Shown one piece after another: positions 1 to 64,000 of a stretch of DNA of 64,000 bases. How positions within the stretch are numbered: the first letter of the stretch is position 1; each line of letters opens with the position of its first letter. The notes beneath the pieces are model-generated. The model was given only the letters and a program-made list of their open reading frames with translations. It did not search any database and was not told the DNA's origin. The DNA comes from Squalus acanthias (lineage: Eukaryota). The translations under genes and the position numbers were made by a program. Location: positions 145,950,001 through 146,014,000 of the forward strand of contig CM059431.1 of assembly GCA_030390025.1 (NCBI GenBank), given 5' to 3'.

Positions 1-3000
1 TGATTGATATAGGGTTATGGGGAGGGAGCGAGGCAGTTGGAGTAGTTTGGGGTTGATACAGGGTTACGGGGAGAGCGGGGCAGTGGGATTAGTTTTGTAT
101 TGATACAGGGCTATGGGGAGCGAGCGGGACAGTGGGATTAGTTTGGGATTGATACAGGGTTATGGTGGGAGCGGGGCAGTGGAATTAGCTTGGGATTGAT
201 ACAGGGCTATGAGGAGAGAGCGGGGCAAAGGGATTAGTTTTGTATTGATACAGGGCTATGGGGAGAGAGCAGGGTAGTGGGATCAGTTTTGTATTGATAC
301 AGGGTTATGGGGAGAGCGGGGCAGTGGGATTAGTTTGGGATTTATACAGGGCTATTGGGGGAAAGCGGGGCAGTAGGATTAGTTTGGGATTGATACAGGA
401 CTATGGGGGGAGAGCGGGGCAGTAGAAGTAGTTTGGGATTGATACAGGACTATGGGGGGAGAGCGGGCCAGTTGAATTAGTTTGGGATTGATACAGGACT
501 ATGGGGGGAGAGCGGGGCAGTGGGATTAGTTTGTGAATAATACAGGGCTATGGGGAGAGAGAGGGGCAGTGGGATTAGTTTGTGAATAATACAGAGCTAT
601 GGGGAGAGACTAGGTCAGTGGGATTAGTTTGGGATTGATACAGGGCTATGGGGAGAGAGCGGAGTAGTGAGATTAGGTTGGGGTTGATACAGGGCTATGG
701 GGGAGAGCGGGGCAGTGGGATTAATTTGGAATTGTTACAGGTCTATGTAGAGAGAATGGGGCAGTGCAATTATTTTGAGATTGATACAGGGCTATGGGGA
801 AAGAGTGAGGCAGTGGGATCAGTTTGGGATGGATACTGGGTTATGGGGAGAGAGCAGGGCAGTGGGATTACTTTGGGATTGATACAGGGCTATTGGGAGA
901 GAGCGGGGCAATGGGATTAGTTTTGTATTGATACAGGGCTATGGGGAGAGAGCAGGTCAGTGTGATAAGTTTGGGATTGATACAGGGCTATGGGGAGAGA
1001 GTGGAGCCGTGGGATTATTTTGGGATTGATAGAAGGCTATATGGAGAGAGTGAGGCAGTGGGATTAGTTTGGCATTGATACAGGGCTATGTGGAGAGAGT
1101 GAGGCAGTGGGATTAGTTTAGGATGGATACTGATCTACGGGTAGAGACCAAGGCAGTGTAATTAGTTTGGGATTGATACAGGGCTATGGGGAGGGAGCGA
1201 GGCAGTGGGAGTAGTTTGGGATTGATACAGGGTTATGGGCAGAGCGGGAGAGTGGGATTAGATTGGGATTGATACCGGGCTATGGGAAGAGAGCGGTGCA
1301 GTGGAATTAGCTTGGGATTGATACAGGACTATGGGGAGAGAGCGGTGCATTGGAATTAGTTTGGGATTGATACAGGGCTATGAGGAGAGAGCGGGGCAAT
1401 GGGATTAGTTTTGTATTGATACAGGGCTATGGGGAGAGAGCAGGGTAGTGGGATCAGTTTTGTATTGATACAGGGTTATGGGGAGAGCGGGGCAGTGGGA
1501 TTAGTTTGGGATTTATACAGGGCTATTGGGGGAAAGCGGGGCAGTAGGATTAGTTTGGGATTGATACAGGACTATGGGGGGAGAGCGGGGCAGTAGAATT
1601 AGTTTGGGATTGATACAGGACTATGGGGGGAGAGCGGGCCAGTTGAATTAGTTTGGGATTGATACAGGACTATGGGGGGAGAGCGGGGCAGTGGGATTAG
1701 TTTGTGAATAATACAGGGCTATGGGGAGAGAGAGGGGCAGTGGGATTAGTTTGTGAATAATACAGGGCTATGGGGAGAGAGAGGGGCAGTGGGATTAGTT
1801 TGTGATTATACAGAGCTATGGGGAGAGAGTAGGTCAGTGGGATTAGTTTGGGATTGATGCAGGGCTATGGGGGAGAGCGGGGCAGTGGGATTAATTTGGA
1901 ATTGTTACAGGGCTATGTAGAGAGAATGGGGCAGTGGAATTATTTTGAGATTGATACAGGGCTATCGGGATAGCGGGGCTGTGGGATTAGCTTGGGATTG
2001 ATACAAGGCTAAGGGGAGTGAGCAGGACAGTGGGATTAGTTTGGGATTGATAGAGGCCGATGGGGAGAGAGCAGGGCAGTGGGATTAATCTGGTGTTTGC
2101 TACAGGGCTATGGGAGGGGTGGAGCGAACCAGTGGGGTTAGTTTGAGATTGATACAGGGCTATGGGGACAGTGCGATGCAGTGGGAGTAGTTTAGGATTG
2201 ATACAGGGCTATGGGGAGAGAGCGGGGCAATGGGATTAGTTTGGGATTGATACAGGGCTATGGGGATAGAGCGCGGCAATGGGATTAGTTTGGAATTGAT
2301 ACAGGGCTATGGGGTGACAGTTGGGCAGTGGGATTGGTTTGTGATTGATACAGGGCTATGGGGAGAGGGCAGGGCAGTGGGATTAGGTTGTGATTGATAC
2401 ATGGCTCTGGGGAGAGAGCAGGGCAGTTGGCTTAGTTTGGGATTGATACAGGGCTATGGGGTGACAGTTAGGCAGTGGGATTTGTTTGGCATTGATACAG
2501 GTCTCTGGGGAGAGAGCGAGGCATTGTTATCAGTTTGGGATTGCTCCACAGCTCTGGGAGGATAGTGAGGCAGTGGGATTTGTTTGGGATAGATACATGG
2601 CTATGGGAGAGAGAGAGGTAGTGGGATAAATTTGGGATTGGAACAGGGCTATGGGGAGAGAGTGGGGCAGTTGTATTGGTTATGGATTCATTCAATGCTA
2701 TGGGTTGGGAGTGGGGCAGTGGGATTAATTTGGGATTGATACATGGCTATGGGGAGAGAGCTGGGCGGTGGGATTAAATTGGGATTAATACAGGGCTATA
2801 TGCAGAGAGTGGGGCAGTGGGATTAGTTTGTGATTGATACAGGGCGATGGGGAGAGAGCAGGGCAGTGGGATTAATCTGGTGTTTGCTACAGGGCTATGG
2901 GGGTGGGGAGCGAACCAGTGGGGTTAGTTTGAGATTCATACAGGACTATGGGGACAGTGCGATGCAGTGGGAGTAGTTTGGGATTGATACAGGGCTATGG

Positions 3001-3823
3001 GGAGAGAGCGGGGCAATGGGATTAGTTTGGGATTGATACAGGGCTATGGGGAGAGTGCGGGGCAATGGGATTAGTTTGGAATTGATACAGGGCTATGGGG
3101 TGACAGTTGGGCAGTGGGATTAGTTTGGGATTGATACAGGGCTACGGGGAGAGGGAAGGGCAGTGAGATTAGGTTGTGATTGATAGATGGCTCTGGTTAG
3201 AGAGCAGGGCAGTTGGATTAGTTTGGGATTGATACAGGGCTATGGGGTGACTGTTTGGCAGTGGGATTAGTTTGGCATTGATACAGGGCTCTGGGGAGAG
3301 AGCGAGGCATTGTTATCAGTTTGGGATTGCTCCAGAGCTCTGGGGGGATAGTGGGGCAGTGGGATTTGTTTGGGATAGATACATGGCTATGGGGAGAGAG
3401 AGGGGTAGTGGGATAAATTTGGGATTGAAACAGGGCTATGGGGAGAAAGTGGGGCAGTTGTATTGGTTATGGATTCATTCAATGCTATGGGTTGGGAGTG
3501 GGGCAGTGGGATTAGTTTGGGATTGATACATGGCTATGGGGAGAGAGCGGGGCGGTGGGATTAGTTTGGGATTGATACAGGGCTATATGGAGAGAGTGGG
3601 GCAGTGGGATTAGTCTGTGATTGATACAGGGCGATGGGCAGAGAGCAGGGCAGTGGGATTAATCTGGTGTTTGCTACAGGGCTTTGTGGGTGGGGGAGCG
3701 AACCAGTGGGGTTAGTTTGAGATTGATACAGGGCTATGGGGAGAGAGCGGGGCAGTGGAATTAGTTTGGGATTGATACAGGGCTATGGAGAGAGCGGGGC
3801 AGTGGGTTTAGTTTGACATTGAC
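1..3823 (+). repeat. 49-bp G-rich tandem satellite (consensus GGGATTGATACAGGGCTATGGGGAGAGAGCGGGGCAGTGGGATTAGTTT)
   Basis: The unit recurs continuously from the window start to ~3820, with higher-order periods of ~1171 and ~787 bp. Confidence 0.97.
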
Positions 3824-3824
3824 A

Positions 3825-6800
3825 GCCCCACCAAACACAGAGCCAGCGCAGCCTGTCTACCTGTGTCCCCTGGAGTACGACGCTTGGAAGAGGCCACTTG
3901 TTGGGATGGAGGTGGAAAAGGTGAAAGGGACTTATCTGTTAGATAGTGGAGCTTCCAGCACCATAGCCTATTCAGAGAATCCCACAGCCTCACCTCTGTC
4001 TAATGGGGTCCCGTACAGTTTAGTGTGATTCACAGGTAACGAGCAGACTGGCTCGTTCTCAATCCCGCTGTCCATTCATTTAGGGACACTCCACATCAAG
4101 TGGACCTGTGTCCTGATGAAATGGGAGAAAGAGGGGATGGGGATCCTGGGGGCCGACTTTATCACAGGCCACAGGATTTTAGTGGATCTTAGGAACCACT
4201 GTCTGTGGGGAGCATGTGTGGGTAGAGAAAGTGAAGTGGCAGTCATCCCAGGGAAACAGGGCAAGGGAACCTTGTGTACCCTAAAACCTAAGGAAGGTTA
4301 CGACCTCGAGCAAATGGTCAGTAACACTCCGGTGGAGTACCAGGCATTTGTGCGAGCGCACCTCGCAGCATTTGCCACCCACAAGCATGACTGTGGGAGG
4401 GTCAACGGGGTCGAGGTTAGTGTCAGTGGAGACCCCATGACCCGACCACAGAAGCAGTATAACTTCCCCAGGGAGGCAGAAGCAGACATGGAAGCAGCCA
4501 TGGCTGCCTTAGTAAAGCAGAGGGTGCTGAGACCGATAGCCACCCATGTAAACTCCCCACTGTGGCCGGTTAGAAAACCGGACAACTCCTGGAGGGCCAC
4601 AGTGCACTATCGGGTACTCAACCGTAACATCCCCGCCTGTGCACCCACGGTGGCAGCCATTGCCGACCTCATTGGAAGAATCCCAGCATCTGCAACCACC
4701 TTCACAGTGCTGGACATTTCCAACGGGTTTTGGTCCATCCCTTTAAGAAGGGAGGACCAGTACAAGTTCGCCTTCGCGTTTAAAGGCCAACAGTACACCT
4801 GGAATTGCCTACCCCAGGGTTTCCACAATAGCCCCAGCATTTTTCATCAATGCATGGCTAATTGTTTGAAGGGTTTTAGCCGGCCCCGGCAGTTGGTACG
4901 GTATGTGGTTGACCTACTCTTGTTCACCGATGAAGGAGAGGAACACGGTCCACTACTGGCTGAAATGCTGGAGCTGCTCCGGCAAGGAGGCTTCAAGGTA
5001 AACCCTAAGAAGGTACAGATCGGCCAACAGGAAGTAAAATTCCGAGGGCTAACTGTGCGCGCAGGGGAAAGGGCCATCGACAGAGCCAAGAGGGAAGCAG
5101 TGCAGGAGTTACCAGCCCCCAACACAGTCACAGGGGTAAGATCCTTTCTAGGGCTAACTGGGTACTGCAGAGATTTTATTGAGGATTATGCAGCCACAGT
5201 GGCCCCTCTGCTCCGACTCCTACACAAGGGTGTAGAGTGGGCTTGGGACGAGGGTTGCGAGGCAGCATTTGTGAAGCTCAAGAAGGATCTGCAGACCGCA
5301 CCAGCTCTAGGGGCTATTGATGGGGAGAAAGAGTTTTTCCTGGAGGTGGCAGCCAGCGGGGACAGTCTGAGTGCTGTGCTGCTCCAAGAGAGGCACGACA
5401 GGCTGAGACCAGTGGTCTACTCCTCCAGGATACTCACTGATGTGGAGAAGGGCTACTCCAACTGTGAGAGGCACCTCCTCGCCACTTACTGGGCTGTGAA
5501 AAGATCATTGATCTTCACAGGCACACCTCCCATCACCCTGCTCACCCATCACACGCCCACCCAGATGCTCCTAGATGGGAGAATCAAAGATGGGACAGTG
5601 AGCAGTGCCCGCATTGCCCGCTGGACCCTATTTCTCTCCCAGATGGACCGAAGGATAAAAGGTCTCTGTGAGCCGAGGCTCGCAGCCAACCTGATTTACC
5701 CAGGGAACGCCCACCGATGTTCCATTGAAGGGGTATGGGAAGTCAACATAGGTTTTCGGGCCGGGATACACCCCACAGGCCGCAAAATCTATGTGGACGG
5801 TTCGAGCACAGTATCTGCTGGAGAACGACTCACAGGGTGTGGAGACATTGCCTTGGCCATTAGACTACCCAACACCATGAGCGCCCAGCAGGCTGAACTG
5901 TCTGCGGTGGTGTGTGTGGTTGCACACCCCGAGAAGTTCCCTACCCCATACACGATTTGCTCGGACAGCATGTTCACATGCAATTCATGTACGGAGTACC
6001 TGGCCATCTGGTCCCGTCGTGGATACACCTCCGCTGATGGGAGACCCCTCACCATAAAGCCCCTGTTGGAGAAAATCATGTCAGCAGTGGGGGAGGGAGG
6101 GAAGGTCTTTATCCATAAGGTAAAGGCCCACTCTAAGAAAGAGCCCAAGTGGGAAAATAACCACAAGGCAGACGAGCTGGCCAAACAGGGGGCCAGAGAA
6201 GGGGTATTCTGGGACCCGTACCAAAAGGATCCAGTAGCAGCAGTCTGGGCCAGGAGAAGCACACAGGGTGTAGCTTTGGCCCCGGACTTAAAGCAGGCCC
6301 AAGCCCAGGACACAGTCCTCAAGACTGTCCTGAACAGGCTTGAAAAAGGGGAGAAAGTAGAGGGCCCGTATGGCGCAGCAGCCATCACCGTAAAGGAAGG
6401 CATGCTGTTCAGGGGGGAGCAGTGGGTGGTGACACAGCAGCACCGAAGGGAATTCCTCCAACTGGCCCATGAGGGTCCAGGAGCGGGGCATCCCGTGCCT
6501 GAGACCACCTGGCAGCAGGTGGAACAGACAGGATGGTGGCCAGGACTGAGGGAGGATGTCCGCGAGTTCTGTGCAGGCTGCCTAGTGTGTGCTGCTAACA
6601 ACCCAGACCCCCAGAAAAGGAAGGTGTCCATGGGACACATCAGGAGGGTAGAGTGACCATGGCAGTCGATCCAGGTCGACTACATCGGGCCCCTACCCAC
6701 CGCCCAGGGAGGCTTTAAGTACTGCCAAGTCCTGGTGGATGTGTTCTCAAAGTGGGTAGAAGCGTTTCCATGCCGTACTGCTACTGCATTGGGTACGGCT

Positions 6801-8018
6801 AGGATCCTAGTCAGGGAAGTGTTCTCACGGTGGGGACTACCACAGTATGTGGAGTCCGACCAGGGGAGTCATTTTAATGGGCAGGTTATGCAAGAGACCC
6901 TCAGGGTGCTCGGCATAGAGGGGAAATGGCACGTCGCCCACAACTCGCAGTCATGGGGTCCTGTGGAGCGTTTAAACCGTACCATCAAGGAAAGGCTACG
7001 GAAGGAAACGGGAGACTCACCCAAAAGGTGGGAAGAACTCTTACCATTGGTCATAATGGGGATCCGGGCCAGCCAGTCAAAAAGCACGGGGTATTCCCCA
7101 CACGAGCTCATGACTGGCAGGATTATGCGGACCCCCACCCATGTGCTAGCCCCAGTGCTCACGGAAGGGCAGCTCAGGGAGGTGAACCGGGACAGATTGG
7201 TCAGGAATCTGTTGGACCACCTTAAACAGGTCCACTGGCAGGCTGTGAGCAACATGGGAAAGCAGCATCGGAGTAACCGATTGCTGCTGGAACCCCGCAA
7301 GCACCACGAGTGGGAGGTAGGAGACCAGGTCATGGTTAGGAATTTTGCCCGGGTGGGGAGTTTCGAACCACTGTACATGGGGCCCTACCACATTGTGGAC
7401 AAGGCAAGCTCCATGGTCTATGCCATAAAGATGCCCCGCCGTACAAAGTGATGTCACATCAACCAATGCAAGCTGTTTAAACCCGAGAAAAGGGAACAGT
7501 CAGCAAAGGTGGACCACCCTAAAGTTAGAGATCCCCAGCCAGCAGCTGTGGCAGACTCACAGGCTGCAGCGGTGGGGACAGTGGCTTGCATCACAGGAGG
7601 GTACACTCCACCGATTATGTGGGACTCAGGCACACCCACAGTGGCCAGAGTCCTAAGAAGGTCTCCCCGCACACCACGGCCTAAACTGCCGTGGTCACCG
7701 GTGCATCAGTGGGTCAGCCCAAAAGGGGCTGCAACCCGCAAAGGAGTGCCCAAGGCCAGGGAGCGTTCGAAGGTTAGGGATCCCCAGCCTGCAGCCCCAG
7801 GCTGCGGGGAACCCACAGGACAGGACAGGGACTCAGCAGCCACACCAAAGGGGGCAGTGTGCTGTAGCACAGGAGGGGACACTCCCGGGATTGACAGGGA
7901 TTCAGGGAAACCCTCAGTTGTTTTAAGAAGGTCAAGGGTCCTGCGGTACAGGCCACCTTACGCCCAGGCGTGCAGGCTGCTCAGAAGCTGCCCAACGCAG
8001 AGGCCATGCAGGGATTGA
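3825..8018 (+). pseudogene. pol: pol pseudogene (protease LLDSGA, RT, degenerate RNase H tether, RNase H IYVDGS, integrase HHCC/DDE/GPY, C-terminal extension)
   Basis: ORFs 3813-4028, 4116-6656, 6735-7451 and 7509-8018 share one frame, broken by TGA at 4026, 6654 and 7449. RT YVDD is mutated to YVVD, and there is an 18-bp deletion (VYDPAA) in RH relative to ERV2. Confidence 0.95.
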
Positions 8019-10285
8019 CCTGGCCGTCCGGAGACGGGCGGCGAATGTACAGAGTTATAATTTTAGGTGTTTTACACTTTTGGTAGTTTTAAGATTTTAA
8101 GAATTCTAGTTTTAAGGATTTTAGTAAGTAAGTTTTAAAGTTCTCAAGAATCGATCACCCGTCAAGCCAGAGAACCTTCTCGGGACATGGCTGTCTGTTT
8201 TGTGTGTCCCCACAGAGAGGAAATCGGCTTGACAAGGGTTCTGCTCCTGCTCGCCCTGGTAGGGGTGAGCATCGGTGACCGAGGTGACGTGGAGGACTCC
8301 CACATCTATGGGTACTCGGGAGAGAGAGCACCAGTCGTCACTGCAGGGGGTGGCGAGCGGGGAGTGGAGGAGCTCGCCATCTACTTCCACGAGGGAAGGT
8401 GGCCAGGGTGGCTGGGGTCCAACTCTACTAAATACTCCAACCAGCCCGGGTTCACGTACGGGGAGGCCTCCCTCCCATGCCCCAGGGTACAGGTCGTTGC
8501 CACAAGGGTCAGTGTCACCAAGGGGAAATGTGTGTGCCTTACCTGCAAGGGACGAATTCCCCTGAATAGGTGGTGGTGGCTCAGGAAGCTAAGCAGGGAC
8601 GCAGGGGACCATAAAGCCGACTGGGAACGACTAGGGAACGACACCTACCGGACAATCACAGGGACCCATGGGGGAGTGAGTGTGTGTTGGGATAGGTGGT
8701 TGGAGTCGGAACAGGGAGTCTATGTCTGCATGTGGGCATCAGAGAAAGCCTGCCCCACAGGCATATCCATCATCTTCTCCAGACAATGGCAAGATGCTGG
8801 GGAGGGGATGGGGTGAGATTCTAGCCTACATGTGTGCGCGCTCCCACACACCCCTACCCCAGTCAACACCACCGAACTCGTGGCACGCCCCCGAAAGCCC
8901 CTGCCCACGACCACGACCTCACGGACAGTAGTAGAGAGTTGTCCTACCACCACCAGGGGACCAGAGAATGGGTTAGTCCTAGTGCCAACCGAAAAGGTAC
9001 TATACCAGGGGGTACACTATGCAGCAGCTTCAGTAATATTAAACCTTACCGAGGTATACTTACCTAAATGGTGTCCTAAGGAGACAGAACAGCTATACCA
9101 GGCCCTGCTAAAGGAAATGTTTAGAAAATTACATGAATTCGACTTTGCCAACGTGGACAAAGCAGAACTGTACGGATTACACCCTGAGCGCACCATGGGC
9201 ACAGGGAGACAAAGAAGGGGGACCTGGAACGATATTTTCACTACCTACAAAACAGAATCCTCAGTAATAAATAGCCTGGATGACATAGAGCTACAAACAC
9301 AGATAAATGGTTTAAAAACCCAGTTAAGAAAGATCCTAACGGACAGGAACACAGTGGTGGGCTCAGAGCTACACGAGGACCAAGCTATGACGGTCCATCT
9401 ACAAGAGATTATTGCTGAGCTAGTGAGACATGCTAAAACAGTGAATGCACTCATACGGGAGGACAGGAATGCTTCGGATCAGGCTGCATAGAATGAGGTG
9501 TGTGTGCTATACGGGGCATGGTTGCTGGGCGAGGGCCGCAGCAACCTGGAGGATTTAAAACAAGGTTTAGTCCCCTCCTGGATTAGCAACAAACACCTCG
9601 CAGCCCTCCACCTGTTCAGCAATTCGCTGAGCCCGTGTCAGCTCCGTCTAGCCTCTGAAGCCTACCCAGTCCCAGTAGATTGTGGACGTTCCAATCACTC
9701 TATCATGGGGATAGTAGTAAGATGGCCGGTCATGGGTGGGACAGCCCGACCCGCACCGGTATACAGGGTGGAGAACATTGGGATCATTCAAGGAGGTGTA
9801 CATGTCCGTTTTGCAGCGGTCCCACCTTATGTGATAAAGTGGGAGCACGCTATGAGAGGTACTGACCTCTCTGTGTGCCGGAGCCGGGGTTCACACATAA
9901 TACTGTGTCCCCAGCACTTGAACGCCTATCCTAAACCACAGTGTGGGTTTAAAGCTGCTGGCGCTCGACCTATCAACTGTACCATGGAGTAGGCCATGTT
10001 CCCCCACAGGTAGCATTCATCGGGGGTGGGACATATTGTGTCACCACAAGGGCGCCCCACTACCAGCATGGACAGCATTTTTGGTGTCCGGTAAGTGACA
10101 GCAGCTTCTGCTTTAAACCTGAGGCAGAAGTTCAAGTGGCCCAGGAATGGATTGTCCCCATTCCTGAACCCTCAACCGTTCATCTCACTGTAAGGGAAAA
10201 CATTACCAACCTGCAAAACTATGTCACCTTCTTCGGCTATAAAATTCCCCCTCTGCCTGAACACCTTATCGTCTTACTTAAAGCT

Positions 10286-10577
10286 ATGATGTGGAGATGC
10301 CGGTGTTGGACTGGGGTGGACAAATGTGAGAAGTTGCACAACACCAGGTTATAGTCCAACAGCTTTATTTGAAATCACAAGCTTTCGAAGCGCTGCTCCT
10401 TCGTCATAAAGGGCAGTTGGAAAGATTAACTGTAGTCACCTGGCAGTGTTCTCTGACTATATATGCTGTGCCTATATGCATCTTTTCACTTCACCTGACG
10501 AAGGAGCAGCGCTCCGAAAGCTTGTGATTTCAAATAAAGCTGTTGGACTATAACCTGGTGTTGTGCGACTTCTCACA
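10286..10577 (+). mobile_element. Short Penelope-like element (pLTR) insertion with an internal 84-bp inverted repeat
   Basis: 12-bp target duplication TTACTTAAAGCT (10274-10285 / 10578-10589). Inverted arms 10323-10406 and 10496-10579 differ at 2 positions. Contains a hammerhead core and AATAAA. Confidence 0.75.
10491..10527 (+). ncRNA. Minimal type I hammerhead ribozyme motif
   Basis: Helix I TCAC/GTGA, core CTGACGA plus an extra A, helix II GGAGC/GCTCC, GAAA, palindromic AAGCTT, putative cleavage triplet CUU. Confidence 0.65.
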
Positions 10578-10666
10578 TTACTTAAAGCTGTACAGGTATC
10601 ACAAAAGCATTTCTACACCCTAGAACAAAAGACACTCGAGATAGGGGCTGAGATTTCGGCCATCAC

Positions 10667-12471
10667 TGTAGGCTTTGCAAAATCCCCCAGAAACTCAAAC
10701 AGAACCCTAAAGGGGGTGATTTTTGGATTTTTATACGAATTTGGAATGATGCGACCTAAATGAAGGAATTTGATGTCAGAACCTCCGTTTTGGTCATTTT
10801 TAAGGATCAGGGAAGGAAAACCCTGAGGAAAAAGACTTTTGGATGATAAGACACCTTTTAAAAGGGCCATTGGGAAAACCTGCAGTCACAGAAACTCCAC
10901 AGGCTGCAGGAAAGGGTGTGGTGAGGCAGTGGACAGCTTTCGGTTATTGGGACCCAGCCAAGCTGTCAGGGAGATGTTTGCACTGCAATCCAACCAGGGA
11001 GGAAGAGCCTCACCCAAAACCTCAGATACACATCCAAAAATGAATAATCCAAGACCCCTTTTGAAATCCCCAGGCCCACACAGGATGCTAGAAGCCTGAA
11101 AACAATAAAACATCCAGTACACCCATCAACCCATCAAAAACCAATCAGCCAAGCATCTACAGGGACAGATTAACAAGCCCGCCAAAAACCTAAGACAAAA
11201 GGGGCGAGATTTGGCGCGTATGTAAAGGCCCTGCCTAAATGGGAGACATCGAAAGCCATCAGGACAATTTAACACCAAGTTAAATCATCAAAACTTAACG
11301 AGCCCACCAAAACCTAAGACAATGGAATGAACAGGCCTCAACTGAAACCTAAATCACTTCAACACAAAACCGATTTAGTAAAGCGATTTTGTCGCGAAAA
11401 ATACAATGGGCCTGAATGGAATAATTGAGGGGCTATTCCCCCAGCAAACACAGCAAGTTAATCACCGCTACAGAGGGCCACACGACACGAGCAGGAGGAC
11501 AGAGAAGCAGCTAAGCCACGAGGCAGGCAGACCCGAGGCGCGATCGGAGGCAGGGACAGACAAGGCCAGGCAAGGGCTAGAACTGAGACCACGAGCTGGG
11601 AGCGAGTCGGCATCGCTGAACATACGCTCCAGCTCTAGTAGGTACTAGCCAAGGCCACTGGAAGCTGGGAGCGAGTCAGCATCACTCAACCCACAGTCCA
11701 GCTCCAGGAGGTACCGCCCCGACAGGCCTCCAATGCAACAAACCAGCTACAAGAGCCGGCAAGGGCTCCACGAGGTGAACCGACACTCGAAAGTACCGCG
11801 GAAACCAAGGCCCCGCGCAGCAACCAACCACCAGGCAACCATGACCAAGAACCAGACCAACACCAGAAAAAACCGAGGACACGCAAGTTTCCACACTACA
11901 AACTATTCCTGACTTACCCCTGGGTAAGATTTTCCGTTAAAAAACTCTAAACCCTACCTCGAAGGGAGAAAAATTGGGTACTTACCTGATAAAGTCCAAT
12001 ACGCACCTTACCGCGTCTGCGGACAAACCCAAACTGACCTGGAGTGCAGCTGGAGTCTTCCACCACGTCCGGGGTACGGCAGGTCCCAACAATCAAAAAC
12101 CGCAGTGAACCCCGAAATCACAAAATATCTCAACTGTCAAGAACTGTCATTGGTGAGCATTATCCCTGATCCTTTGGAATTGAAACCTAGCTAGACAGTG
12201 GGATTGGGAGGGATAAGGGTTTTTGTATATTGCCAATCTCCCTCGCCTGTACCGTGTGTTCCCCAACCTGTGTTTAGGCATTAAGTGTGTTTTAAGTTTG
12301 TTACCTTTTTCTTTTAATAAAGTCAAAATTCTTTCATCAGAGCCTGTTGTCTGCTGCATCTTTGTTCACAACACCCAAATAAGTCCAAGGTCTAGAACCA
12401 GGGACGTGGGAGCGATTCGAACCGCTCACTGAGTCAGAGGTGAGGCTGGCCCTACTACACCACCCCCTACA
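10667..12471 (+). mobile_element. Solo LTR (LTR-A, 1805 bp) nested in env of ERV1
   Basis: TGTAGG...CCTACA termini, 4-bp TSD TCAC (10663-10666 / 12472-12475), AATAAA at 12316. The 3' half is clearly homologous to the LTR at 13268-14902. Confidence 0.93.
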
Positions 12472-12520
12472 TCACGGTTCCACCCTGGTGGGACATTTTT
12501 GAGAATATAGAGGTTCCTTC

Positions 12521-53838: not shown

Positions 53839-54094
53839 GGAAGAGAGGGAGAGAGTGACAGACAGACAGAGAAATAGAGAGAGAGAGATAGAGTGAGAGA
53901 GAGATAGTGAGAGCGAGACAGAGAGGAAAAGAGAGAAGACAGAGATAGGAAGAGAGACAGACGGAGAGAGAGAGACAGAGAGAGAGAGAGGAAGAGTGAG
54001 AGAGAGACATAGATGGAGAGTGAGGAAGATAGACAGAGAGAGAGACAGAGAGAGAGTTAGAGAGAGATAGAGAGACAGAGGGAGAGAGACAAAG

Positions 54095-54128
<34 letters not shown>

Positions 54129-54778
54129 AGAGACAGACAGAGAGAGAGAGAGAGAGAGATAGAGACCAAGAGAGAGACGAAGAGAGAGTGACAGCGAGAG
54201 GGAGGCAGAGATGGAGAGAGATAGTCAGAGAGAGAGAGCAAGTTACAGACAAAGAGAGCGAGACAGAGCATGGCAGACAGACTGAGTTATAAAGAGACAG
54301 ACAATGAGAGTGGGACAGAGATAGAGAGAGAGAGACAGAGAGAGGAAGAGTGAGGGAGAGAGAGAGAGAGAGAGGCACAGAGAGAGAGGAAGAGAAAAAG
54401 TATGAGAGAGACAGAGAGAGAGACAGAGAGTGACAGACAGACAGAGAAATAGGGAGAGAAATAGAGTGAGAGAGAGATAGAGAGAGCGAGACAGAGAGGA
54501 AAAGGGAGAGAGACAGAGAGTGACAGACAGACAGAGAAATAGAGAGAGAGAGATAGAGTGAGAGAGAGATAGTGAGAGCGAGACAGAGAGGAAAAGAGAG
54601 AGAGACAGAGATAGGAAGAGAGACAGAGAGAGAGAGACAGAGACGGAGAGAGAGAGACAGGGACAGAGAGAGGAAGAGTGAGAGAGAGACATAGATGGAG
54701 AGTGAGGAAGAGAGACAGAGAGAGAGACAGATAGAGAGTTAGAGAGAGATAGAGAGACAGAGGGAGAGAGACAAAGAG

Positions 54779-54812
<34 letters not shown>

Positions 54813-55841
54813 AGAGAGACAGAGAGAGAGACAGAGAGAGAGAGAAAGACAGAGAGACCGAGAGAGACAGAGAGAGAGAGACAGAGAGAGAGACAGACAG
54901 AGAGAGAGACAGAGAGAGACAGAAAAAGTGAGAGAGAGACCGAGAGACAGAGAGAGAGAGAGAGATAGAGAGAGAGAGAAAGACCGAGAGAGAGAGAGAG
55001 ACAGAGTGAGAGACAAAAAAAGTGAGAGAGAGAGAGAGAGACCGAGAGAGAGAGACAGAGATAGAGAGACAGAGAGAGAGAGAGAGAGAAACCGAGAGAG
55101 GGAGAGGCTGAGACAGAGAGAGAGAGAGACAGAAAAAGTGAGAGAGACAGAGAGATAGAGAGAGAGATACAGAGAGAGAGAAAGAGAAAAATATGAGAGA
55201 CAGAGAGAGAGAGACAGAGAGAGAGAGACAGAAAAAGTGAGAGAGAGACAGAGAGAGAGAAAGACTGAGAGAGAGGCAGAGACGGAGAGAGAGAGGCAGA
55301 GACGGAGAGAGAGAGACCGAGAGGCAGAGCGAGAGAAAGACCGAGAGAGAGACAAAGATAGAGAGACAGAGAGAGAGAGAGAGAGAGACAGAGGGACAGA
55401 GATAGAGAGAGAGATAGATAGAGAGAGAGCGACAAAGAGAGAGTGACAGAGAGAGGGAGAGGCAGAGACAGCGAGAGACAGAGGCAGAGATGGAGCGATA
55501 GACAGAGAGAGAGAGACAGAGAGAGAGAGCAAGATACAGACAAAGAGAGGGAGACAGAGCGTGGCAGACATACTGAGTTATAGAGAGACAGACAATGAGA
55601 GTGGGACTGAGATGGAGAGAGAGAGACAGAGAGAGGAAGAGTGAGGGAGAGAGAGAGAGAGAGAGGCACAGAGAGAGAGGAAGAGAAAAAGTATGAGAGA
55701 GACAGAGAGAGAAAGAGAGTGCCAGACAGACAGACAAATAGATAGAGTGAGATAGAGTGAGAGAGAGATAGAGAGAGCGAGACAGAGAGGAAAAGAGAGA
55801 GAGACAGAGATAGGAAGAGAGACAGAGAGAGAGAGAGAAAG

Positions 55842-55872
<31 letters not shown>

Positions 55873-56533
55873 TAGGGAGAGGCAGAGAAAGAGTGAGACA
55901 GAGAGAAAGATAGAGACTGAGAGAGAGAGTGTGAGATAGAGAGATAGAGTGAGAGACAGAGAGAGAGAGAGACAGAGAGGGAGACCGCGAGGCAGACAGA
56001 GATATATAGAGAAAGAGATAGAGACAGAGAGAGTGAGACAGAGACGGAGAGAGAGAGACAGGGGCAGAGAGAGAGGAAGAGTGTGAGAAAGACAGAGATG
56101 GAGAGTGAGGAAGAGAGACAGAGAAGGAGACAGAGAGAGCGAGAGATAAAGTGAGAGAGACACAGAGAGAGACATTAAGAGAGAGAAAGACAGCAAGAGA
56201 GAGAGAGACAGAGAGAGAGACAGACAGAGGGAGCGAGACAAAGAGAGATAGAGACAGAGAGAGAGACAAAAAGAGAGAGAGAGAGACCGCGAGAGACAGA
56301 GAGACCGAGAGAGAGAGAGAGACAGAGAGACCGAGAGAGAGAGACCGAGAGAGAGACAGAGAGAGAGAGACAGAGAGACAGAGAGAGAGAGACAGAGAGA
56401 GACAGAAAAAGTTAGAGAGAGACAGAGAGAGAGAGAGACAGAGAGAGAGAAAGACCGAGAGAGGGAGAGGCAGAGACAGAGAGAGAGTCAGAGACGGAGA
56501 GAGAGAGGCAGAGATGGAGAGAGCGAGACCTAG
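49116..56533 (+). repeat. Complex (GA)n/GACA array
   Basis: Same composition; the first part mirrors 29.4-34 kb. Confidence 0.97.
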
Positions 56534-57108
56534 TGTAGAATTCGCAATATATCGCGATTTTATTAATAAGGAGAAAACACAGAGTTTCGTTCAAACAGCT
56601 TTTATTTCAGCAGAATGCTGACAGGTTTAAAGTGGACACAAGCAGCCTGTAAAATGGCCGCCGCACCTCGGGACAGAACATTCTAGACTTTTCAACAGGC
56701 AGACAAGATGGCGTTCCAATAAACATTTGTGCAAGATCGATTAAGAGTCAGCACAGTGAAGATAATACACGAGACATTATGGGTTTGCAGTATACACATA
56801 GATACTGAAATCGGTCTCCCAGGTACAAAGGAAAGCCATTGTACCGAGTAATCAAGGGCCCATCCAAAGACATTAATATGTAAAATCCCAACGACTCTAC
56901 GATGAGAGAGCCGTTAGCAGGTAGTTATACAGGACACTTGGAAGCCCCAAAACCCCTCCAGGGAGAACGCCGACCGATTTAACAATGGGAGAAATATTAA
57001 CAGGTACTCAGACATTTACGAGTAGCCCCGAAACCCATTAAGAACGGAGATCACCCATACAAGACATTTGAGCGCCAGACCCTAAACAAAAGAATGGACA
57101 TTATAGTT

Positions 57109-57140
57109 GGGCGGGAAACGGAAGATTTTTGCACTATAAT
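57109..57140 (+). promoter_or_regulatory. Putative LTR core promoter (GC box + TATA-like)
   Basis: GGGCGG followed 26 nt later by TATAAT. The same arrangement is present in the solo LTRs and in LTR-B (GGCGGG...TATAAT at 13965). Confidence 0.55.
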
Positions 57141-57898
57141 TGCAGGCTCCAAACCGTCCATCTTTCTCTTGCTGCTCTTATCATCGTGGCTGCTCCTGTG
57201 TACTCGTAGTTGGGCTTCTGCTTGCCTGTTGCCTCTTCTGAAAAGACTGTTGAACTTTCTGATCCGTTCGGATCTACCTCGTGTCGCGTAACGAAGACCT
57301 ATATTGGTAACCGGTATCGGAACCAAAAGGCCCGAGAAGAGATGAGATGAGATGAGATGAGAAGAGAGGAAGACCATATCCATCGCCACGGTCAGTAAAT
57401 CCCGACCGCGCCTGTAGGTCGATTAGCCAAGTTTTCCTTGCCAGGAAGACTTCTTCGAACTTGCAAAGAAACATATCGTATCGATGATATTGACAACTGT
57501 GCTCGAAAAGTACCTGTTAAACCAACCAACACAGGTCTTCATCACAGCAGACGTTCCAGCCTGCTAGCCGGAGCAGCAGAAGCAAGTAAACAAGTGGGAC
57601 CAGGAGATCTCCTGACCGACACGTGGGTGCTGCGGTGAAAAACATCCGATCAGCTATTCGGAATTTCTCCGAGTTATCACGAGTGGTGAGCATGAGTCTC
57701 GAGATCCTACGAATCTAGTTTAGGATAGATATTGATAGGGGAGGGTTTAAGGATTAAGGATATTTGTAATGTGTGTCCCTATTTACTTTGTGCCGTTCGT
57801 TCCTCGTTTCCCTAAGATCGACTATATAACTGTTTGTAAGATTGTACTGTCATTAATCTGTGCTTATGACATGTATTTCATAATCTTAAGTATCATGC

Positions 57899-57904
57899 AA
57901 TAAA
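57899..57904 (+). terminator. LTR polyadenylation signal
   Basis: AATAAA is positionally conserved in all five LTRs (12316, 14748, 27946 rc and its duplicate, 57899). Confidence 0.75.
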
Positions 57905-58158
57905 GATTTTCCATTTCGTACCATTCAAACCGAGTCTACATGAGTTTCATCTCCATTACTGCTCTCGCATCTAAGTCCAGTGTCTAGAACCGTAAGGGAG
58001 AGTGATTCGAACCACTCACAGGTGTGTCTAGTGTTCCCAGACTGGCTGGAGACCAGAACAGGCAACAAGGCCTAGACCCGCACTGACATACAGGCTGCAC
58101 AGAGCCGCGTGAATCTCACAGGCTGCGAGACACGCAGGGTCAGAATCCCTTACAGAAA

Positions 58159-59970
58159 ATGGCGACCGCGGCAGGACACTGGCAGCGAGAGGGTAGTGTG
58201 TTAGATTTTGGAATGACTGTACGAAATGTTATGCAGGAAAAGATAGCGGATTATGTGTTTGGAAAGGTTAATCTAACTAAGAAATGGATAAGTGAATTGT
58301 TAGCGGATAAAAGCCCGCTAGAGGCAGCTGAAAGGTGGACAGATAGTAAAGAACATAGAAAGACACTTGAGAAAGCAGTCTGGCTTATGTGTTACAAAAG
58401 GCAGGTTCAGATTTCAAACCAGACCATTACAGCGCTAGTAGCTCGAATCAGTCATTTAGAGGGAGAAATGGATGAGAAGGTTTCTGGAGGGGAGGTGCTC
58501 ATTAAGAATTTAAATGAGTTACACCAAGAAAGCCAGGAAGTCTCCAGTCACCTTAAAACAAGGATAGATTATCTCGAGTGCCAGGTCACTGAGGCGAAGT
58601 TGAATGAAAGCAGGTTAAAGGAGAGATGTAACCGCCAAGCTGCCCAGATAAGAACTCAAGAAGAGAGCTTAACGGGGGTTAGGGCGGCATATAAGTTGGC
58701 CCTTGAGGATAAGTTTCAGGGAGCCGATCATAGCGCCTGCCAAAGGGAGATAGAGCACCTCAAAAAGGCCGTGAACAATGCGAACGGCATGGTGTGCCTT
58801 ATCAATCCGTCGGCACACCAGCCGCTAGTAAGTGAGAGATTTAAAAAATCCCCACCAAGTAAAGCAGAAGAAGTAGTAGCCACTGCGCCCTCCGCTCCAC
58901 CCAGCTATTCGGAAACCTGGGTTAGGGAGGAAGCAATGGAAGAAACAAAAGAGCCCATTGAAAAAGAAGTAGGAAAGGGATCGTTGTATCCAGTAACGGG
59001 TATTAAAAGGGGCCCAAGCAGAAACGGTGGGGAAGAACCGGGGGATCTCCTCGGACAGCTGGTGTTGCCTCACAGTTCACATCAGCTGAGAGCTATGATA
59101 AATCACGTACGGAAGCTGACCGAGGCAGACGACCCTTCCGTACATTTCAGAGAAGTTGAGCAAGCCGCAGCCATTAACGGCTGCGATGATGGGGAAACAG
59201 CAAAAATGCTGCTGTTCTCATTAGACAGCTCGGTCCTTCAGTGTCTCTCAGGCGAGAGCAAGAGGGGAACCAAGAGTTATGAGGAATTAAAGAATGAGGT
59301 CCTGGAAGTGTTGGGGGCGAACGACGAAGGTCCGTTTGCTCGAGTGGGACAGACAGTGCAGATGGAGGGAGAACCCCCGAAGGTTTTTGCCGACAGGCTG
59401 TGGCCGGTATATGAGCGCAGCTGCCTAGGTGCGCCCGAGCGCGAAGATGTGGAAGGCACCGCTTTAACTCATTGGCTTAGGTGCATAATAGCCAACAGTT
59501 TACCAGCCGTCAGAGAGCAGGCAAAAGCATGGTTTGATCCCAATGACCCCAACATTACGGAAGAGTCGGTCTTGAATCGACTCACGTTAGGTTATCGCAA
59601 TATAAGGGGTATGGCAACACGTCCCCTTAAGGGAAGGGTACATGAGGTACGACCCGCAGCCCCGTATCAAAGAGAGTGGCATCAGGAGGGTAATCGCGCC
59701 CCACAGGCAGGTAATGCTTGTTACGGGTGTGGGAAGACAGGGCACTGGCGCAAGCATTGCAGGAACCCTTGGAAGGATTCCAAGGATAAAAATCCCGCGG
59801 TCCGAGCCCAGGCGCCTGTCCCGGCTAAGGAAGCTAGTGCACCCACCCCTCCCGACGACCTCGAAGCAGTGTTAGGAGCCATGCGCAAGCTGGTCTTGAA
59901 TGCGCGTGGACAGGTGGCGGTCGCAACCAGCCCCGTAGGTGCCGCAGGACCGTCTAATAGTACCCCATGA
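58159..59970 (+). CDS. gag: Gag polyprotein (coiled coil, PSAPPSY late domain, capsid-like region, one CCHC knuckle)
   Basis: 603-aa ORF between the PBS and pol; CYGCGKTGHWRKHC at 59719-59760. The true start could be the second ATG at ~58213. Confidence 0.93.
   Translation: MATAAGHWQREGSVLDFGMTVRNVMQEKIADYVFGKVNLTKKWISELLADKSPLEAAERWTDSKEHRKTLEKAVWLMCYKRQVQISNQTITALVARISHLEGEMDEKVSGGEVLIKNLNELHQESQEVSSHLKTRIDYLECQVTEAKLNESRLKERCNRQAAQIRTQEESLTGVRAAYKLALEDKFQGADHSACQREIEHLKKAVNNANGMVCLINPSAHQPLVSERFKKSPPSKAEEVVATAPSAPPSYSETWVREEAMEETKEPIEKEVGKGSLYPVTGIKRGPSRNGGEEPGDLLGQLVLPHSSHQLRAMINHVRKLTEADDPSVHFREVEQAAAINGCDDGETAKMLLFSLDSSVLQCLSGESKRGTKSYEELKNEVLEVLGANDEGPFARVGQTVQMEGEPPKVFADRLWPVYERSCLGAPEREDVEGTALTHWLRCIIANSLPAVREQAKAWFDPNDPNITEESVLNRLTLGYRNIRGMATRPLKGRVHEVRPAAPYQREWHQEGNRAPQAGNACYGCGKTGHWRKHCRNPWKDSKDKNPAVRAQAPVPAKEASAPTPPDDLEAVLGAMRKLVLNARGQVAVATSPVGAAGPSNSTP
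58160..58177 (+). promoter_or_regulatory. Primer binding site, tRNA-Arg(TCG)
   Basis: TGGCGACCGCGGCAGGAC, 5 nt after the LTR end. It is complementary to ...GUCCUGCCGCGGUCG-CCA, the 3' end of a vertebrate tRNA-Arg(UCG) as I recall it. Confidence 0.85.
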
Positions 59971-62900
59971 CTAGAACCGGCGCAGCCCGTCTACCTGTGT
60001 CCGCTTAGCTATGATGCGTGGAGGCGACCTGTGGTGGAGATGGAGGTAGAGAAACAGAAGGGTAGTTATTTGTTGGACACGGGAGCTTCTTGCACCATAA
60101 TCCATACAGATAACCCTTTTGACTCGCCGCTATCTACCAAGGTCCCATTCACGTTAGCAGGGTTCACAGGAAAAGAACAGGCTGGCACGTTTTCCCTTCC
60201 GCTATCCATTCGTTTAGGAACACTTCGCCTTAAGTGGAAGTGTATACTGATGGCATGGCAAAAAGGGGGTGGAAGAGGTATTCTCGGGTCTGATCTCCTA
60301 GCGGGACACGGGATCCTCGTGGACCTCAGAAATCACTGTCTCTGGGGGGCTAAAGGTGAAAAAGGCGAGGTAATAGTGATTCCGGGGGAGGAAGAAACAG
60401 GGGTCCTGTGTACCGTACAGCCATCCGGAGGCTACGACCTCAGGCTTATGGTCGCAGATGTCCCAACGGACATGCAAACGTACGTGTCAGATAATATGCA
60501 CGCGTTTGCAACCCACAAGCACGATTGTGGGAGAGTGGTCGGGTTTGAGGTCAGCGTAGATGGGGACCCCATGACCCGACCCCAAAAGCAGTATAACTTC
60601 CCCAAAGAAGCAGAACCCGATATGGAGACAGCAATGTCTTCCTTGGTGCAGCAGGGCGTGTTGAGGCCGATAGCCACACACGTGAACTCCCCATTATGGC
60701 CGGTTAGGAAGCCGGATAATTCGTGGAGAGCCACGGTGGACTACAGAGTCCTTAACAGTAACATTCTCGCCTGCGCGCCCACAGTAGCAGCAGTTGCTGA
60801 CCTAATAGGGAGCATCCCAGCGTCCGCGACCACGTTCACGGTGCTGGATATCTCGAACGGTTTTTGGTCCATCCCGCTGCGGCGAGAGGACCAGTACAAG
60901 TTTGCCTTTACTTTCAAAGGGCAACAGTACACGTGGAACTGTCTGCCACAGGGTTTCCACAATAGCCCCAGTATTTTTCATCAGTGTATGGCAGGAAGTT
61001 TAAAGGAGTTTAGTCAGCCCAATCAGATAGTACAGTATGTGGATGATTTGCTCCTATTTACGGACTCAAGGGAGGAGCACGGACCACTACTGGACGAGTT
61101 ATTGGAGCTGTTAGCGAGAAAGGGTTTTAAAATAAACCCTAAGAAAGCACGTATCGGTCAGCGGGAAGTAAAATTCCTGGGATTGACCATACGCGCTGGG
61201 GAAAGAGCCATAGACAAAGCAAGGAGGGAGTCGGTGCAAGAATTACCGATTCCCAACAACGTAAGGGGTGTGAGGTCCTTCTTGGGACTGACCGGTTACT
61301 GCAGGGATTTTATCGAAGACGATGCGGCCACAGCGGCGCCGCTCCTCCGACTCCTCCATAAGGGGGTGGAGTGGCTTTGGGACGAGAGCTGCCAAGCAGC
61401 CTTCGAGAAGTTAAAAAGGGATCTGCAAACCGCGCCAGCCTTAGGGGCCATAGATGGGGGGAAGGAGTTTTTCCTGGAGGTAGCTGCCAGCGGAGACAGC
61501 TTAAGCGCCGTGCTGCTCCAAGAGCGTCACGGCAAGCTGAGGCCGGTTGTCTATTCATCCAGGGTGTTAACGGATGTGGAGAGAAGTTTCTCCAATTGCG
61601 AAAGGCACCTTTTAGCCACGCATTGGGCTGTGAAAAGATCAGCGATCTTCACAGGGCTCTCTCCCATCACTCTCCTCACACATCACACACCAACTAAGAT
61701 GCTTCTGGATGGGAGGATTAAAGACGGGACCGTAAGCAGCGCACGCATTGCGCGTTGGACCCTTCTCCTCTCCCAGTTGGATCTTAGAGTGAAAGGTCTT
61801 TGCGAGCCAAGGCTTGCGGCCAATTTGGCATACCCCGGTACAGCCCACCGGTGTTCGGTGGAAGGGGTGTGGGACGTCAACATAGGTTTACGGGCCGGGA
61901 TACATCCCACTGGGCGCGAGATTTATGTTGATGGGTCTAGCACAGTATCCGCTGGCGAGCGACTCACAGGGTGTGGAGTTTATGACCCTGCGGCAGACCT
62001 TGCCCTGGCGATCAAGCTCCCTAGCACCATGAGCGCGCAGCAAGCCGAGCTGTCTGCCGTGGTGTACGTTGTGACCCACCCAGACATTTTCCCAACCCCA
62101 TACACGATTTGCTCGGACAGTATGTTCACCTGCAATTCGTGTACGGAATACCTGGCCATTTGGTCCCGCCGCGGATACACCTCCGCGGACGGGCGACCTT
62201 TAACGGTGAAGCCCTTGCTGGAAAAGATCTTAGCAGCAGCAGTAGGGGAGGAAGGAGAGATTTTCATCCATAAGGTGAAAGCTCACTCCTCCACAGAGCC
62301 CCGTGGGGAGGGCAACCGGCAGGCGGATGCGCTAGCCAGGGAAGGTGCCCGCGACGGCACTTTCTGGAACCCCTATAGGACCGGACCCATAGCAGCGGTC
62401 CGAGGCGGGGACGGGAATCCCGGGAACACCAGGGTAGCATTGCCCCTAGACCTTAAGACCGTCCAAACCCAGGATCCCGCCCTAAAAGCAGTCCTAAAAA
62501 CGATTGCTGAGGGGAGGCAGGTAGAAGGTCCGTACAGTACGGCAACCCTCTCAGTTAAGGAAGGCATGCTGTTCCGCGAGGAGCAGTGGGTTGTGCCGCA
62601 GCAGCACAGGAGGGAATTCCTCCAGTTGGCTCACGAGGGACCAGGGGCAGGGCACCCCGGGCCCGAGGTTACCTGGCAACGGGTAGAGCAAGCGGGATGG
62701 TGGCCAGGGCTCAGGGAACAAGTCCGCGAGTTCTGTGCAAGCTGTCTTGTGTGCGCTGCAAACAACCCAGACCCCCAGAAAAGGAAGGTGCCCATGGGAC
62801 ACGTAAGAAGGGTAGAGGGACCATGGCAGTCGATACAGATCGACTATATAGGACCCCTGCCCACCACCCAGGGAGGTTATAAGTATTGCCTCGTCCTGGT

Positions 62901-64000
62901 GGATGTGTTTTCCAAGTGGGTGGAAGCCTTCCCTTGTCGAACAGCTACGGCACTGGGTACAGCAAAAATCTTGGTCCGGGAAGTGTTCTCGCGGTGGGGA
63001 CTTCCCCGTTTTGTGGAGTCAGACCAAGGGAGTCATTTCACCGGCCAGGTGATGCAGAACACCCTCATGCTTTTGGGCATTGAAGGGAAGTGGCACGTAG
63101 CACACAATCCCCAGTCATCCGGGATTGTTGAACGTATGAACCGGACCCTGAAGGAGAAATTGAGGAAAGAGACTAGGAACTCGCCCCAAAAATGGGCGGA
63201 GGTTCTGCCTTTAGTCCTCATGGGGGTCCGGGCCAGTCAGTCAAAAAGTACGGGGTACTCCCCGCACGAGGTAATGACCGGGAGGCTCATGCAAACCCCC
63301 ACCCATGTGCTAGCACCGGTGCTCACTGAGGGTCAGCTCCAAGAGATAAGCAGGGACAAGTTCGCCCAGACTCTCTTGGAGCGCCTGAAGCAGGTTTATG
63401 AGCAGACGGCTGGGAACATGGGAAGGCAGCATCAGGGCAATCGCTTGTTGCTGGAACCCCGCAAAACGCGGGAGTGGGAAGTGGGAGACCAGGTCATGGT
63501 CAGAAACTACGCCAGAGTAGGGAGTCTGGAACCACTGTATATGGGACCCTACAACATTGTAGACAAGGCGAGTCCCATGGTTTACGCCGTAAAAGTACCT
63601 CGGCGCACTAAGTGGTTCCACATAAACCAATGCAAACTATACCAGCCAGGTGCGCAAGGGAAAACTACAGGGGTAAATCCCGCCAATGGGAAAGCACAGC
63701 CCCAGGTAGGACCACAAGGCACACAGGCAGGCATAGCAGCTTGCATCAGGGGAAGGGACATCCCGGACGATCATGCAGCGTTTTTCTGGAATTGGGGGTT
63801 AGATGAGGAAGAATTCAGGGTACCCGGGTCAGATGAGGATAGTGCAGATGAGAATAGTGATGACGACGGGTGGTTCCTGAGGAACGGTCTGGAGGGAATG
63901 GGGGCTGTAGGTAGAGATCCACACAGGGTGGACACCCAAGCTGCAGGTCTCGAAGACAGGAGGGAGGAGCTAGAGGAGGCAGGGCCAGCCGCTATGGGAG
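59971..64000 (+). CDS. pol: Pol polyprotein (PR-RT-tether-RH-IN-extension), 3'-partial, probably made by readthrough of the gag UGA
   Basis: Same frame as gag. DTG at 60076, YVDD at 61036, IYVDGS at 61921, HX6H...CX2C, QIDYIGP/ESDQGS/VERMN, GPY. It is absent from the ORF track, consistent with no stop before the window end. Confidence 0.94.

Follow-up and report, generated by a model that had tools for sequence, protein, structure and literature searches.

Endogenous retroviruses (ERVs) related to snakehead retrovirus (SnRV) are already known from cartilaginous fish. In the elephant shark, ca_mi_ERV1 was assigned to clade Huo, where it stands near SnRV by tip order only, and its reverse transcriptase (RT) shows both motifs of the family described here (Xu et al. 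2018, PMC6001957). A snakehead-related elephant-shark lineage, CmiERV lineage I, was dated to about 75 million years (Han 2015, PMC4422223). In parallel, the lokiretroviruses (Wang and Han 2020, PMC7947760), renamed lokiorterviruses (PMC9040795), were reported to combine a tether and RNase H with an F-like envelope protein (Env) bearing RXKR; six cartilaginous-fish genomes were screened in that study and none of them carries the asterisk marking positives. Here, a 64,000-nucleotide stretch of the Squalus acanthias genome was analysed (the window; assembly GCA_030390025.1, contig CM059431.1, positions 145,950,001 to 146,014,000). It contains two related proviruses, copy A at 3.8-14.9 kb, which is old and broken, and copy B from 56.5 kb, which is young and continues into the neighbouring stretch L011, where its env gene and 3' long terminal repeat (LTR) lie outside the window. 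The family is most probably an elasmobranch ERV of basal class III or clade Huo (SnRV-related) grade that arrived in several invasion waves, the latest very recent. Proviral layout, primer match, target duplication, LTR identity, an RT outside the lokiretroviruses (lokis), Env profile homologies and copy counts were all observed directly.

Copy B bears out the original prediction of a near-intact member, as its gag, pol and env are all uninterrupted. Its 5' LTR (56534..58154, plus strand, 1,621 bp), with a TATA-like box at LTR position 1290 and AATAAA at 1366, has zero differences from the 3' LTR (L011:4546-6166), and the provirus is flanked by a 4-bp target duplication, CTAG. The primer-binding site (PBS; 58160..58177, plus strand) is an 18-nt perfect complement of the 3' end of host tRNA-Arg(TCG). 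The gap between LTR and PBS is five bases, not two, and the first gag ATG overlaps the PBS, an arrangement seen in nine of ten copies sampled from the best RT matches in the host genome. The gag gene (58159..59970, plus strand, 603 aa, one CCHC knuckle) shares its frame with pol (59971..64000 and onward past the window, plus strand), which encodes protease, RT, tether, RNase H, integrase and a long acidic and proline-rich tail, and env (L011:1743-4094, plus strand) encodes 783 aa. No extra long open reading frame was seen in copy B, and no search was aimed at SMC, an smc-like gene being optional in lokis. In the host-genome region G000:C26 39.0-42.2 Mb, the 3' pattern of tRNA-Arg(TCG) has 422 exact matches, many of them in 1.62-kb tandem arrays. 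The C-terminal tail of Pol (window 63640-64000, L011:640-1455) has about 270 aa, with RRSSREPQPRR as a motif; in SnRV, Pol terminates in RRRSPRF.

This layout is consistent with a life cycle in which the 5' LTR would drive full-length RNA, host tRNA-Arg(UCG) would prime reverse transcription and integrase would generate the 4-bp duplications. The main product would be Gag, and Gag-Pol would be obtained through leaky UGA-CUAG readthrough. A spliced RNA would serve for Env translation, and an acceptor-like sequence is located upstream of the env ATG; no env splice joint was seen in sequencing-run contigs and no RNA run was listed among the holders of the family, results that have no bearing on expression. 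The TGA-CTAG gag stop (window 59968-59974) was found in copy B and in all six other copies with the junction pattern, among nine loci examined. TGA-CTAG is also present in loki locus L045 (1733-1739), and TGA-CTAA in L044, while two own-genome relatives (L076 and L071) have a gag-stop TGA in other contexts and XtERV-S was likewise reported with a TGA junction (PMC8278194). UGACUAG supports basal readthrough, and it is missing among the retroviral contexts listed in the consulted sections of a 2026 readthrough review (PMC13517186).

The RT of both copies was compared with gamma, foamy, delta, alpha/beta, epsilon and lenti retroviruses, lokis, SnRV, Gypsy elements and unnamed proteins. The loki references were three metagenome loci matching rows of the loki paper and three proteins with loki motifs; near-duplicates were left out, and the smaller tree was also built without rows for the alpha, beta, delta and lenti groups. 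Both copies fall inside the canonical-retrovirus clade in the 54-row tree (support 100/99), with lokis as sister, and again in the 46-row tree (100/98), which includes six loki rows and has lokis outside. Forced grouping of the copies with lokis was rejected by approximately unbiased (AU) tests (p 0.0013 and 0.0005). These results do not support the original prediction that the family is loki-like. Its claim of a true retrovirus, drawn from tether and RNase H, holds, the RT not falling within Ty3/Gypsy in the trees. The trees also place the copies outside the gamma/epsilon, alpha/beta/delta/lenti and foamy clades. Within canonical retroviruses their position appears to be basal, and any choice of exact sister group is provisional.

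The domains of Pol were as predicted, since the tether (RT_RNaseH; E 4e-18 and 3e-19) and a second RNase H (E 2e-19 and 5e-17) were found in copies A and B, respectively. Tether and RNase H are common to all retroviruses, so they are not diagnostic of lokis. LDISNGFWS and LPQGFHNSP are present in both pol copies; the YVDD motif that had also been announced is intact in B only and degenerate in A. In the searched part of the loki-paper supplement (PMC7947760), SNGFWS occurs in SnRV rows only (three of three matches) and PQGFHNSP nowhere, the inspected loki rows having PFGY or a variant at the corresponding place. A viral-contig search with the RT retrieved one relative, 42% identical, identified as SnRV by its RT, which equals the SnRV row, and the nearest named Pol relatives are from frogs and coelacanth (43-45%). 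A Ty3/Gypsy identity was excluded by the RT trees together with the dual RNase H. At least two further basal class III-like RT lineages, mostly decayed, were also observed in the host genome (L067-L078).

The Env of copy B is composed of a signal peptide, a cysteine-rich head, a proline-rich linker, an RQRR site at residue 327 and a transmembrane (TM) segment at about 734-752; CX6CC and ISD motifs are absent from it. Fifty Env relatives were found, shark, skate and frog proteins among them, and the closest named ones are from skate (75%) and saw shark (54-73%). In keeping with the predicted cartilaginous-fish host, these relatives and a host-gene segment of saw-shark model P0002, which matches six ordered exons of the genome analysed here (64-87%, without a bony-fish control), make an elasmobranch likely. 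A 39-sequence Env profile detected foamy Env (PDB 8rm1, E 1.2e-4), SnRV Env at 92% and partial loki Env at 97%. With an 18-sequence profile, the values were 97.5% for loki, 87% for SnRV and 50% for foamy (14 foamy Envs), against 1.9% for gamma (10 Envs, all with CX6CC), 2.4% for epsilon and 0.5% for delta. The loki match, to a reference that consists of one partial sequence of 323 aa, reached 97.4-97.5% with E about 1e-11, while the reversed and five shuffled controls gave 0.1-0.4% and all Env profile controls remained at or below 1.3%. When the partial loki Env was set directly against foamy or SnRV Env it scored 0.1%, an unfair test with so short a sequence. The homology between the shark and SnRV Envs is seen only by profiles, direct BLAST of one against the other being non-significant (E 0.25).

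Judged by these profile matches, the Env is F-type, homologous to loki Env and not gamma-type, as the original prediction had supposed. In the Atlas, the look-alikes of its ectodomain are F proteins (PF00523 clusters) and Gypsy/baculovirus F (0.91), with no direct match of Env to PF00523 (F protein). Furin would cleave Env at RQRR into a surface part, made of a probable immunoglobulin (Ig)-like head and the proline-rich linker, and a fusion part that would share its architecture with paramyxovirus F and with the Envs of foamy viruses and lokis. The Env of foamy virus has been linked to paramyxovirus and pneumovirus F (PMC11468914), and F-type Env is also borne by invertebrate elements (PMC13524379). 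The head would adopt an Ig fold and serve in receptor binding, and Ig heads may be clade-wide though mutually unlike. Among the relatives, the gene model of a frog protein (P0005, residues 1205-1300) extends beyond integrase to include a signal peptide plus an Ig-like domain, and one Env (P0084, residues 25-96) has a V-set-like domain at its start. Two saw-shark gene models (P0002 and P0003) join env-family pieces to Niban-like and zinc-finger genes, being either model artefacts or exonised env. A literature search found no publication joining snakehead with an immunoglobulin domain. An Env with an N-terminal Ig-type domain as putative receptor-binding part was described by Hoetzel (2024, bioRxiv 10.1101/2024.03.17.585361); it differs in being gamma-type, and the consulted text of that preprint contains neither a shark element nor an F-type core.

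The family is large. Exact matches in the host genome numbered 2,412 for the LTR-PBS junction and 3,638 for the LTR start, with 0 in the controls, which gives at least 2,400 proviral 5' ends. Among the 150 best RT matches, a sample biased to the best, 94 lie within open frames of 1,490 codons or more. Eight of the ten sampled copies have both LTRs, which are 99.5-100% identical (0-8 mismatches), and their target duplications include six exact 4-bp ones, one with a mismatch and one that is possibly 5 bp. Wang and Han (2023, PMC10435555) characterize invading ERVs by identical LTRs, by gag, pro, pol and env being intact, and by insertional polymorphism in the host population; copy B displays the first two of the three. 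No cartilaginous-fish order is listed in the consulted portion of that survey, and its RT alignment is without the RT motifs of the copies. Across L011:600-6166, contigs that are mostly 95-100% alike fill all 30 bins in four sequencing runs from four coded organisms. Such a near-identical family under several organism labels would reflect recent spread or close kinship.

A full 783-aa env is present in six of the ten sampled copies. In six comparisons of env with copy B, the ratio of nonsynonymous to synonymous differences (pN/pS) was 0.08-0.25, a range obtained with a sampling (best RT matches, whole-env copies only, one reference) that favours purifying selection. That env is under purifying selection in the young copies suggests that the family spread through germ-cell infection and not by intracellular copying only. 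An element of the same identity could nevertheless have amplified its recent copies inside germ cells, env being a passenger preserved by the youth of the burst. We regard this as unlikely. It would agree with the thousands of copies and with the four of ten env frames that are cut short; the LTR matches also include pairs spaced by only about 7.7 kb, so deleted derivatives multiply too. The low pN/pS values speak against it, as do the 150 best env matches, which over 200 aa show about 100% identity.

Besides the env sampling just described, several results weigh against an SnRV-related placement with an Ig-headed, F-type Env and readthrough. The copies group with SnRV at only 79/88 in the 54-row tree, and in the 46-row tree the node of SnRV, the copies' group and gamma/epsilon has only 67/36; ERV-L and Odin rows are absent from the RT trees, which limits the exact sister group. 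Integrase scored 217 bits against lokis and 126 against SnRV, and the tether 71 and 31, respectively. Grouping of the integrase with lokis was not rejected by the AU test (p 0.18), although these tests reject neither partner (p 0.18 and 0.14). No stable RNA structure was found 3' of the gag stop (z +1.65). The single Env sequence had no significant match in Pfam or PDB. For the Env head, the Atlas returned Ig clusters at 0.86-0.87, a weak lead from a single source, the Pfam Ig matches were weak (E 0.0085-1.1), and an Ig-head profile found no match in frog, shark and SnRV heads (0.2-2.5%).

The integrase and Env scores bear on two other explanations. That the family is a true shark lokiretrovirus (lokiortervirus) is extremely improbable. 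Such an identity would account for an F-like Env that is closest by profile to loki Env, for the TGA-CTA junctions and for the higher integrase and tether scores, but it is contradicted by the RT trees and AU tests and by the absence of the loki RT signature. Moreover, lokis form their own integrase clade (98/97), and the CCHC Gag aligns weakly to SnRV Gag (E 7e-4) and not to loki Gag (E 0.07). The peptide after the furin site is not of the hydrophobic loki type either, its mean hydropathy being 0.11 (1.96 in loki and -0.52 in SnRV). A recombinant, in which a virus with canonical RT took env and perhaps integrase from a lokiretrovirus, is decidedly unlikely too. Lokis are rejected by RT and not by integrase, the best Env profile score is that of loki, and class III ERVs are known to have exchanged env (XtERV-S, PMC8278194), all of which would suit a recombinant. 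However, the same Env type and a NYNRIN-like integrase occur across shark, skate, frog, coelacanth and bird relatives, the integrase label being the annotation of the Pol relatives and the integrase trees being without a NYNRIN row itself. SnRV and foamy Envs are homologous too, which makes shared ancestry simpler, and the host genome yielded no exact loki motif, its best loki-RT match being 43% among 150 scored.

Placed at SnRV-related grade, the shark family can be compared with the described systems in turn. With SnRV (L012) and clade Huo (PMC6001957) it shares LDISNGFWS and LPQGFH motifs, a single frame for gag and pol with a stop between them, the weak Gag alignment, an Env colinear over 275-296 columns (87-92%) and a weakly hydrophobic after-furin peptide. 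It differs from SnRV in its RT, in its TGA-CTAG gag stop (TAG-GGC in SnRV), in lacking the long RNase H-integrase insert, in an Env of 783 aa against a 1,134-codon frame, in an integrase more loki-like by score and in LTRs of 1.6 kb. CmiERV lineage I and ca_mi_ERV1 also have a cartilaginous-fish host, snakehead kinship, the same RT motifs and THKHDCG before RT; their RT is clearly diverged by eye, and an age of about 75 million years contrasts with the identical LTRs and thousands of copies found here. Lokis share the tether and RNase H, the F-like Env, TGA-CTA at the gag stop (two loki loci checked) and, by the annotation of relatives, a NYNRIN/CGIN1-like integrase, whereas the shark family has an RT outside their clade, no PFGY, a CCHC Gag, no long insert between protease and RT, a non-hydrophobic fusion peptide and an extra N-terminal Env domain. 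Foamy Env (PDB 8rm0/8rm1; PMC11468914) has a homologous cysteine-rich fusion core, but foamy RT is a distinct long-branch clade and the shark Env has a cleavable-type signal and one ectodomain furin site. The claim of an undescribed shark lineage stands in part: the copy-B family itself was found in none of the searched papers and supplements, though Repbase, Dfam, non-open papers and unsearched supplements may hold it, while its kind is that of the elephant-shark ERVs.

Copy A is 75% identical to copy B, and pol 3839-7474 (A) is 74.7% identical in DNA and 75.7% in protein to 59973-63638 (B). Its pol (protease-RT-tether-RNase H-integrase; 3824..8018, plus strand) is 5'-truncated at a 49-bp satellite and has in-frame stops at 4026, 6654 and 7449; the 20 kb of sequence upstream of the window yielded neither gag nor 5' LTR of copy A. 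The 49-bp satellite array (about 10 kb; window 2-3822, L103:3729-10000) adjoins this truncated end. The env of copy A (8238..12968, plus strand) is broken by stops at 8814, 9489 and 9990, a frame change near 9990 and three nested insertions, and its pieces are 41-78% identical to copy B env. The predicted furin site and TM anchor of an env-like gene were nevertheless recovered in it, as RQRR and at 12813-12965, behind two of the three insertions. The first insertion (10286..10577) is a palindromic repeat with 84-nt arms flanked by 12-bp direct repeats. The second (10667..12471, plus strand) is a solo LTR belonging to a related subfamily; it measures about 1,805 bp, reads TG...CA and has a TCAC duplication, and its 3' 650 bp are 75% identical to the LTR of copy A. 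The third (12520..12815) is presumably a repeat resembling the tail of a short or long interspersed element (SINE/LINE). The 3' LTR of copy A (13268..14902, plus strand, about 1,635 bp) is preceded by a polypurine tract; 39 other scored copies of its subfamily are 92-96% identical, and this subfamily is older than that of copy B. Rfam gave no match across 3.8-15 kb.

Two minus-strand solo LTRs of 1,670 bp lie between the proviruses, at 27715..29384, which is 72% identical to the copy B LTR, and at 47446..49115, 98.8% identical to the former; the latter is a twin produced by a segmental duplication (about 19.7 kb) of the satellite. The LTRs thus have the predicted sizes (1,621, 1,670, about 1,635 and about 1,805 bp), except that the 1.8-kb one is an insertion in copy A env and not the LTR of copy A itself. 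The predicted 4-bp duplications were found as CTAG around copy B and TCAC around the solo LTR in env. A retroviral family with several LTR variants had been proposed over 3824..64000, and two proviruses with several LTR types are indeed present, but about 40 kb of that span is a GA-rich satellite. One such satellite (window 14903-56533, L011:6167-7260) houses the 3' end of copy A, both solo LTRs and copy B, and also an unrelated 0.9-kb LTR-like element (L011:6325-7259). Eight other copies of the family with resolved flanks lie in no GA repeats.

Wang and Han (2022, PMC9040795) preferred independent Env origins, loki and canonical Envs being presented there as without detectable similarity. This premise fails because the Env of the present virus, whose RT is canonical, gives a family profile that picks up loki, snakehead and foamy Envs, and a single F-type Env origin thereby becomes testable with intact, multi-copy natural sequences. 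Env homology is not proof of vertical descent, since F-type Envs are also found in invertebrate Gypsy elements and RNA viruses. As a tentative proposal, which we hold to be possible but short of probable, F-type Env would be ancestral to canonical retroviruses and lokis, with one origin and later replacement in orthoretroviruses. The shark lineage would have retained the ancestral kit of F-type Env, NYNRIN-like integrase and UGA-CUAG readthrough and added an Ig head, bridging loki, snakehead and foamy Envs while still invading its host. The copy-B family represents a rare young and massive ERV invasion in cartilaginous fish, and it bears on how retroviruses first acquired an envelope.

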